The notes under the pieces were generated by a model. That model did not search any database and was not told where the DNA came from. It saw only the letters and a program-made list of their open reading frames with translations. A stretch of DNA of 64,000 nucleotides. Origin: Escherichia coli (GTDB taxonomy: Bacteria; Pseudomonadota; Gammaproteobacteria; Enterobacterales; Enterobacteriaceae). Positions 4,860-6,144 of this stretch are shown here, one piece after another; the stretch's first letter is position 1, and every line of letters starts with the position of its first letter. The stretch lies in the NCBI RefSeq assembly GCF_003991155.1, contig NZ_CP031295.1. One strand, given 5' to 3'. Position numbers and translations under genes: made by a program.

Positions 4860-5289
4860 CTGTGGAGCACGATCAGGATGGCAGAGGAGAAGCTGAGTTC
4901 TTATTACCGGAAATCGATTATTCCCCGGTATCTGGTAACTGGCGCTCCCTTCCTTCTGGCCTGATGTATAGGCTCAGCGAACTCTCTGTTCTCAGCTACG
5001 AAGCTGTCGTGTGTGTAGATAATGTGTTTGTTGAAGATACTCCTTATGGTGGAGCGGGTGAATATAGTTTGCATAAAAACGCAGCTATGTTGGGAGTAAA
5101 AGCACTGCGGTTATCACGAGAACTGAGAATGTTATGTGGCCTCCCTCTGCACGGCCTTTCCGATACACTATCGCCAACGAGGTTGGTATTGTTGAAAGCC
5201 AGAGGTAAAACACTCCAAAAGGAGTACGAAATGGTAAAGAAGTCTAAAAAGACCGAGCAAGAGATTGAGGATTTCATAAAGGGGACATC

Positions 5290-6144
5290 ATGAGTGGCCC
5301 ACAATTGCTTTCCCTGCCAGGTTCTTTTTTAACGCCTCCGGCAACATTACCTGTTGCCATTGATTACCCGGCTGCGCTGGCACTACGTCAGATGGCACTT
5401 GTGCAGGACGAATTACCAAAATATCTGTTGGCGCCGGAGATCAGCGCCCTGCTCCACTATGTACCGGATCTGCACCGCAAAATGTTGCTGGCCACCCTGT
5501 GGAACACGGGCGCACGTATAAACGAAGCGCTGGCGCTGACGCGGGGAGATTTTTCTCTGGCGCCGCCATATCCGTTCGTACAGCTGGCCACGCTCAAACA
5601 ACGGACTGAAAAAGCGACCAGAACGGCAGGCCGTGTCCCTGCTGGCAGTCAGGTGCATCGCCTGGTTCCCCTGTCCGATACACAATACGTCAGCCAACTG
5701 CAGATGATGGTGGCCACGCTGAAAATCCCACTGGAGCGCAGAAACAAACGAACCGGAAGAATGGAGAAGGCGCGCATCTGGGGAATCACCGACCGCACAG
5801 TTCGCACCTGGCTGAATGAAGCTGTAGAGGCCGCTGCGGCCGACGGCGTGACGTTCTCTGTTCCGGTTACCCCACATACTTTCCGCCATTCCTACGCGAT
5901 GCATATGCTGTATGCTGGTATTCCGCTGAAGGTGCTGCAGAGCCTGATGGGGCACAAGTCGATTAGTTCGACAGAGGTGTACACGAAGGTGTTTGCGCTG
6001 GATGTGGCTGCACGGCACCGGGTGCAGTTTTCGATGCCTGAGTCCGATGCTGTCACAATGCTGAAAACAGACACGCATAAGTCACAAATCATAATTATGA
6101 ATTGTGATTTATTCTATAAAAGAAGAGACCACTGCAATATGTGA
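5290..6144 (+). CDS. resD: tyrosine site-specific recombinase, F-plasmid ResD-like resolvase
   Basis: Tyr-recombinase motifs (TGARINEALAL, HTFRHSYAMHM, LMGHKSISSTEVYT); close to F ResD as recalled. Confidence 0.8.
   Translation: MSGPQLLSLPGSFLTPPATLPVAIDYPAALALRQMALVQDELPKYLLAPEISALLHYVPDLHRKMLLATLWNTGARINEALALTRGDFSLAPPYPFVQLATLKQRTEKATRTAGRVPAGSQVHRLVPLSDTQYVSQLQMMVATLKIPLERRNKRTGRMEKARIWGITDRTVRTWLNEAVEAAAADGVTFSVPVTPHTFRHSYAMHMLYAGIPLKVLQSLMGHKSISSTEVYTKVFALDVAARHRVQFSMPESDAVTMLKTDTHKSQIIIMNCDLFYKRRDHCNM

Follow-up and report, generated by a model that had tools for sequence, protein, structure and literature searches.

In the ResD/rfsF systems of F, IncI1, IncR and ColV/IncFIB plasmids, the tyrosine recombinase ResD resolves plasmid dimers only at a site in cis, rfsF. 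On Salmonella virulence plasmids (pSDL2/pSLT), Rsd/crs, reportedly described by Krause and Guiney in 1991, comprises a ResD-family recombinase and a cis site upstream of it, and lies beside ccdAB. The rfsF site has been described as 10-14-bp imperfect repeats with a 6-8-bp spacer (PMC5587640), and the order of elements in F is rfsF, oriV1, ccdAB and resD, where the RepFIA region begins at nt 45922 and opens with rfsF sites (PMC4398462). In the IncI1 plasmids R64 and ColIb-P9, the rfsF core is followed by one cargo gene and resD, and then by partition genes, impCAB and a DUF1281 gene; nt 43,620-52,796 of R64 have been taken as the rfsF-to-yfcA segment (PMC8004404). The Rsd/crs system has been called rfsF/RsdB (PMC9412624), and rfsF has already been proposed to serve IncI1 plasmids as a switch point and IncR plasmids in acquiring DNA (PMC8004404, PMC9412624).

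Here we analyze a 64-kb stretch (64,000 nucleotides) of the Escherichia coli contig NZ_CP031295.1, hereafter the window, in which a complete IS26 stands upstream of a resD gene (Table 1). The window is part of a replicon, for which the best record is 99.8% identical and not collinear over the tra region; two complete plasmids with the same junction, NZ_CP037904.1 and NZ_CP053724.1, were used as stand-ins for the full replicon. The ResD of the window is 86% identical to that of F, and its intact relatives share with F both the rfsF core and an adjoining module of ~270 bp (81% identical to F), as well as the position of resD as the last gene of the unit. They differ from F in the DNA between site and resD, which holds ccdAB in F and a 116-aa gene plus a 229-aa PDC-S67-like gene in the window-type relatives. 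To the right of resD the window has a gene series similar to that of R64, whereas R64 has a different resD allele (its ResD being 86% identical), an unrelated 137-aa protein as cargo and a retained site. The IncFIB/ColV-type plasmids p1658/97, pVM01 and pEC3-2 are 99-100% identical over the retained part, but keep rfsF and the upstream genes. The junction has the make-up of IS26 adjacent-deletion or cointegrate junctions, namely a complete IS26 without a target duplication joining two unrelated segments. The locus is a damaged member of the ResD/rfsF group beside a standard IS26 junction, and is nothing new in kind. In all likelihood the window carries the downstream stump of a ResD/rfsF module, in which an IS26-associated rearrangement removed the site and orphaned resD.

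Table 1. Features around the IS26-resD junction (window coordinates)
Feature	Position	Strand	Description	Basis
rclA-like oxidoreductase gene	2591-3943	plus		ORF list; annotation in plasmids identical here
IS26	4040-4859	minus	820 bp	terminal inverted repeats and flanks read directly
IS26 transposase ORF	4092-4808	minus	sole Tnp26 gene of the element	ORF list
Chimeric ORF	4787-5293	plus	168 aa; start 73 bp inside IS26	ORF list
3' remnant of 229-aa gene	4860-5293	plus	143 codons and stop	translation; alignment to p1658/97
resD	5290-6144	plus	284 aa, ResD-family tyrosine recombinase; RefSeq WP_016236531.1 'site-specific integrase'	
A4 run (A5 in relatives)	6064-6067	plus	1-bp deletion	DNA and protein alignments
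Palindrome	6077-6112		18-nt arms; just after the wild-type resD stop; shared with pVM01	repeat search
Right-hand end of resD module	6154/6155		ParB/ParA partition genes beyond	alignment

Intact relatives and the location of rfsF

In p1658/97 and pVM01, vapC-vapB on the opposite strand are followed by ~575 bp without coding sequence and then by the 116-aa gene, the 229-aa gene and resD. The plasmid pEC3-2 has the same three genes, but with an annotated anti-phage transmembrane ATPase gene in the place of vapBC. These three genes stand close together, and the 229-aa gene overlaps resD, its stop sharing an ATGA with the resD start. When the non-coding DNA was aligned with the sequence between pifC and ccdA in F and with that preceding the resD unit of R64, all three plasmids (F, R64 and p1658/97) proved to share the ~270-bp module (81-90% in blastn). 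It corresponds to the oriV1 region of F and is absent from the window along with the site. The module opens with the rfsF core, an inverted repeat of the form AGATCCGnAA-N8-TTnCGGATCT, in which 10-bp imperfect inverted repeats surround an 8-bp centre, in agreement with the published form of rfsF (PMC5587640). The core lies at nt 45922 in F and nt 43620 in R64, and its distance from the downstream resD is 805 bp in R64, 944 bp in F and 1472 bp in p1658/97; its central 8-mer is ACCCCAAG in F as against AAAGGCAG in p1658/97. An addiction module preceding the resolution site, as had been expected for such plasmids, is borne out by vapBC in p1658/97 and pVM01 but not by F, where ccdAB lies between the site and resD.

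A scan for ResD with one genome per species yielded 72 loci across Enterobacterales, 41 of them with at least 3 kb of upstream sequence. A same-strand rfsF-type repeat was found 0.8-5.6 kb upstream of resD in 34 of these 41 loci (median 1.5 kb), and the core was never closer to resD than about 800 bp (38 loci). Most ResD loci have a single rfsF site. The consensus of 43 rfsF sites is AGATCCGaaa-a..g..aG-ttcCGGATCt with pyrimidine-rich flanks, an arm invariance that is partly circular since AGATCCG and GGAT were in the search rule; the same 43 sites have 28 different central 8-mers. The slot between rfsF and resD (6351-7434 in the p1658/97 locus) contains the 229-aa family in 9 loci, the 116-aa family in 6, ccdAB in 5, and many unrelated ORFs. 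Thus, the DNA directly 5' of resD is normally cargo and not the site. The original prediction, that the gap between IS26 and resD occupies the normal position of the resolution site, is refuted by this location of rfsF and by the coding nature of the gap (see below).

The intact 229-aa protein of p1658/97 matches PADLOC PDC-S67 (E 1.2e-17, residues 34-210), a candidate phage-defence family that is itself a prediction only, and searches of Pfam and NCBIfam with the 116-aa and 229-aa proteins returned no match. The PDC-S67-like 229-aa family is found in six genera (Escherichia, Enterobacter, Rahnella, Erwinia, Pantoea and Phytobacter). Searches of Pfam and PADLOC with representatives of the slot cargo recovered only weak HEPN (RiboL-PSP) and weak DUF3223/HamC-like matches.

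The resD module is evidently often damaged. In p1658/97 the lesion is reciprocal to that of the window: rfsF and both cargo genes are kept, and a separate IS26 interrupts resD after its first 44 bp (positions 7431-7475 of the p1658/97 locus, L003). In pVM01 an IS100 is inserted in the 229-aa gene (5038/6999 of locus L004) with the target duplication GTGGAG, which shares its right-hand boundary with the CTGTGGAG beside the IS26 of the window (4860-4867). Two different IS families (IS26 and IS100) have struck the 229-aa gene within 2 bp of each other, by way of a hot spot or by coincidence.

The IS26 junction and the missing parts

The IS26 copy has perfect 14-bp terminal inverted repeats (GGCACTGTTGCAAA at 4040-4053 and TTTGCAACAGTGCC at 4846-4859) and is 99.4-99.5% identical to other IS26 copies in the fetched plasmids. 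Its transposase is annotated as the IS26-family protein WP_065304467.1 in plasmids identical here; this is a variant and not the common WP_001067855.1, and the copy is ~0.5% diverged from the others. The 8-bp target-site duplication of IS26 was not found, the two flanks (CTTCATTG and CTGTGGAG) being different, and the element therefore marks a rearrangement junction as opposed to a simple insertion. IS26 copies usually lack the duplication once they have mediated a later deletion, inversion or cointegrate event, and its absence is no argument against the element being IS26. The DNA to the left of IS26 is unrelated to the resD module and comprises rclA, IS1 and an IS3-family fragment, while the plasmid pWL297-2 has the identical junction with different left-hand neighbours. 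Positions 1-4039 of the window are a pile of mobile-element debris, holding a 5'-truncated IS3-family element (ORF 516-1328), a 93-aa ORF, IS1 and the rclA-like gene, which is normally chromosomal.

To the right of the element, exactly 430 bp (4860-5289) separate IS26 from resD. The end of IS26 at 4859, the start of resD at 5290, the 430 bp between them and a 168-aa ORF starting inside IS26 are all as originally noted. The accompanying claim of no convincing gene in the gap holds insofar as no intact gene is present, but the stretch is the 3' part of the 229-aa gene: the 430 bp match the end of the p1658/97 gene encoding WP_000796228.1 at 100% identity and in its reading frame (the match covering 7001-7434 of L003, inside the CDS at 6745-7434). 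The junction falls in codon 86, and the first 85 codons are gone, including a hydrophobic N-terminal segment; with these codons absent, the window copy lacks the full-length match to PDC-S67. The 168-aa ORF is a chimera, its first 25 codons being IS26 sequence and the remainder the remnant of the 229-aa gene, and it is annotated as the hypothetical protein WP_001505085.1 wherever the junction occurs.

We searched for the missing parts of the module both in the window and in the two complete plasmids. The rfsF core was not found in the 64-kb window with up to 3 mismatches, nor under relaxed rules for arms and spacer, and comparison of 4860-5289 with characterised rfsF revealed no inverted repeat resembling it. 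A resolution site downstream of resD was likewise considered and rejected, as no rfsF-like repeat was found there. The ~270-bp module was not found by blastn or pattern search in the window, NZ_CP037904.1 or NZ_CP053724.1, and neither the 116-aa gene nor the 5' portion of the 229-aa gene occurs anywhere in the window. Displacement of the upstream genes was also considered: blastn of p1658/97 5100-7000 against the window and the two complete plasmids gave no match other than a diverged vapBC, in one of the two complete plasmids only. Accordingly, the expectation that the site and the addiction module are gone stands, with none of rfsF, the module or vapBC in the 64-kb window. Beyond the IS26 copy, the upstream genes are removed in both complete junction plasmids save for that diverged vapBC, and the canonical site and module are absent from both, though NZ_CP053724.1 has three rfsF-like cores.

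These three cores lie 9-16 kb upstream of resD (at 37791, 41199 and 44487 of locus L013, whose minus strand is the window orientation). They share the left arm AGATCCGAAA, a pyrimidine-rich left flank and degenerate right arms retaining GGAT, and each has a different central 8-mer. They precede distinct gene blocks, namely a DUF3800 gene, three hypotheticals, and an AAA ATPase with vapBC. NZ_CP037904.1 is without rfsF anywhere, and contains a broken half-site ~2 kb to the left of window position 1, in which the left arm AGATCCGGTT and some of the centre survive and the right arm is gone (~7549-7566 of locus L008). The same site is intact in locus L062 (4070-4097), where the conserved module follows it; the broken version is the scar of an earlier event at rfsF in the lineage.

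Other means of resolution were sought as well. No cer- or dif-like Xer sites were found in the window (6- or 8-bp spacers, up to 3 mismatches), and tblastn with the RepFIB-linked integrase and three serine resolvases found no second resolvase there, the integrase matching resD only. NZ_CP037904.1 and NZ_CP053724.1 have a RepFIB-linked ResD paralogue (49% identical) and Tn3-family resolvases, none of which is in the window, and these might contribute to resolution. In NZ_CP037904.1 a pyrimidine tract and three GGATCC motifs lie upstream of the RepFIB-linked paralogue (1263-2300 of locus L007), and are possibly its own, putative site. A simple scan for sigma-70-like promoters found none on the plus strand between IS26 and resD, and likewise none on the plus strand of the intact module; the scan is therefore uninformative, and weak evidence either way.

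From these comparisons we propose that an IS26-associated deletion or rearrangement would have swapped everything upstream of codon 86 for IS26 along with rclA, IS1 and the IS3 fragment. In this event the plasmid would have lost rfsF with its accessory module, the probable promoter of the operon, vapBC, the whole 116-aa gene and the first 85 codons of the 229-aa gene, keeping a truncated cargo gene and a resD without recombination site, module or, presumably, its native promoter. A 1-bp deletion in the last codons of resD would have followed later.

The resD gene and its frameshift

The resD product contains a phage integrase domain (Pfam PF00589, E 1.5e-18 over residues 45-234) and is 98% identical to the ResD of pVM01 and 86% to those of F and R64. 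The residues R76, H196, R199, H222 and Y231, which we take to be the catalytic Arg/His-x-x-Arg/His/Tyr set of this family, are in columns invariant with the ResD of F, R64 and pVM01. Residues 1-259 are collinear with the 263-aa pVM01 form, leaving the catalytic domain intact, and a good Shine-Dalgarno-like AAGGGG precedes the gene.

The native C-terminus, however, is lost: from codon 260 the 1-bp deletion puts the gene out of frame, and a tail of 25 residues takes the place of the final NRHA, giving 284 aa instead of 263. The frameshift allele is present in 71 PLSDB records and the wild type in 728. As the allele is rarer than the junction (71 versus 121 PLSDB records), and pWL297-2 combines the same IS26 junction with a wild-type resD, the deletion occurred after the IS26 event. 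Such a late frameshift fits relaxed constraint on an orphan resD, although the terminal change could equally be neutral. The omission of resD from the PLSDB table had suggested annotation as a pseudogene; this was ruled out, as RefSeq annotates an intact integrase and the table is thus merely incomplete.

The palindrome following the wild-type stop is a putative element, possibly a terminator or binding site. It was also considered as a resolution site and rejected, being common to pVM01 only and absent from F and R64. Homology to the pVM01/ColV-type context stops at 6154, and many records match 4860-6200 only up to query position 1295 (window 6154). Thus, rearrangement junctions lie on either side of resD. 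Beyond this boundary, positions 6218-8721 contain two divergently transcribed partition systems, one on the minus strand with a MipZ-like ParA and a ParB of ribbon-helix-helix type, the other on the plus strand with ParM and a ParR-like protein. This arrangement presumably resembles the double par locus of pB171.

Alternative readings, spread and significance

Since ResD needs a site in cis to resolve dimers, the ResD/rfsF system is most likely non-functional on the window DNA, and the activity of ResD would be lost there. As counterpoints, the rfsF-like cores of NZ_CP053724.1 might be usable by ResD, and read-through from IS26 could express resD. A reading that builds on both points would keep the system functional, with an rfsF or rfsF-like site outside the 64-kb window at which ResD, expressed by read-through, resolves dimers in trans. 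The intact catalytic domain of ResD and the orientation of the three NZ_CP053724.1 cores, which is that of resD, agree with such a situation, but those cores are without the ~270-bp module and have degenerate right arms and three different centres; moreover, NZ_CP037904.1 has only the broken left half-site, and the frameshift suggests relaxed selection. We therefore regard continued function as unlikely. Still less probable is the account in which the 430 bp directly 5' of resD are the normal position of the resolution site and IS26 abutted or removed the site there. Several ResD-family systems do have their site upstream of the gene; nevertheless, this stretch is coding and wholly identical to the interior of the 229-aa gene, rfsF is 1472 bp upstream in the closest intact relative, and 4860-5289 has no rfsF-like repeat, so that we give this account almost no credence.

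It is also conceivable, if quite improbable, that resD has been kept for another role, for instance acting in trans on the rfsF of co-resident F-like, IncI1 or IncR plasmids in cointegration or module exchange. This draws on plasmid homology breakpoints that fall exactly inside the rfsF core and on the proposals for IncI1 and IncR plasmids mentioned above; against it, the 28 different centres among 43 sites are expected to limit cross-reaction, and resD is already frameshifted. At these breakpoints (5959-5986 of L003; 1961 of L010; 20001 of L014) homology between plasmids starts or stops at the first base of the rfsF left arm or within the 8-bp spacer, as in the matches to p1658/97, and in three plasmids the vapB-side arm and an 'AAAG' are constant while the right side varies. 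This would be the signature expected of site-specific exchange. More speculatively, and as a reading to which we attach only a modest chance, rfsF sites may serve as crossover points for the swapping and stacking of cargo, with the centres as specificity barriers, resD and the half-site as scars, and action of the intact recombinase in trans on co-resident plasmids possible. Under such exchange, the cargo beside resD may be mostly toxin-antitoxin and defence-like genes, and the variable 8-mers may stabilize multi-site arrays, such as the three-site array of NZ_CP053724.1. The loss of the site by an IS26-associated rearrangement, with resD left as an orphan, remains our preferred explanation.

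The 430-bp segment is found in 543 PLSDB plasmids, 321 with the intact upstream unit and 121 with the junction of the window. Hosts of the 121 junction plasmids are E. coli, Salmonella and Shigella from humans, pigs, poultry and the environment, and at least 80% of window positions 4000-28999 is present in 89 complete E. coli genomes. The consequence of site loss appears to be mild, and the loss is presumably tolerated through other stability functions. The junction is a further IS26 scar in a multiresistance IncF lineage of wide distribution, and it marks a plasmid that is epidemiologically successful without its ResD/rfsF site. This success despite the lost site indicates that ResD/rfsF is dispensable given two partition loci, hok/sok and other functions. 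These observations also bear on annotation: WP_001505085.1 is an artefact made in part of IS26 sequence, WP_016236531.1, the 284-aa 'integrase', is the 263-aa ResD altered by a frameshift, and a simple pattern locates the rfsF core about 1.5 kb upstream of resD.
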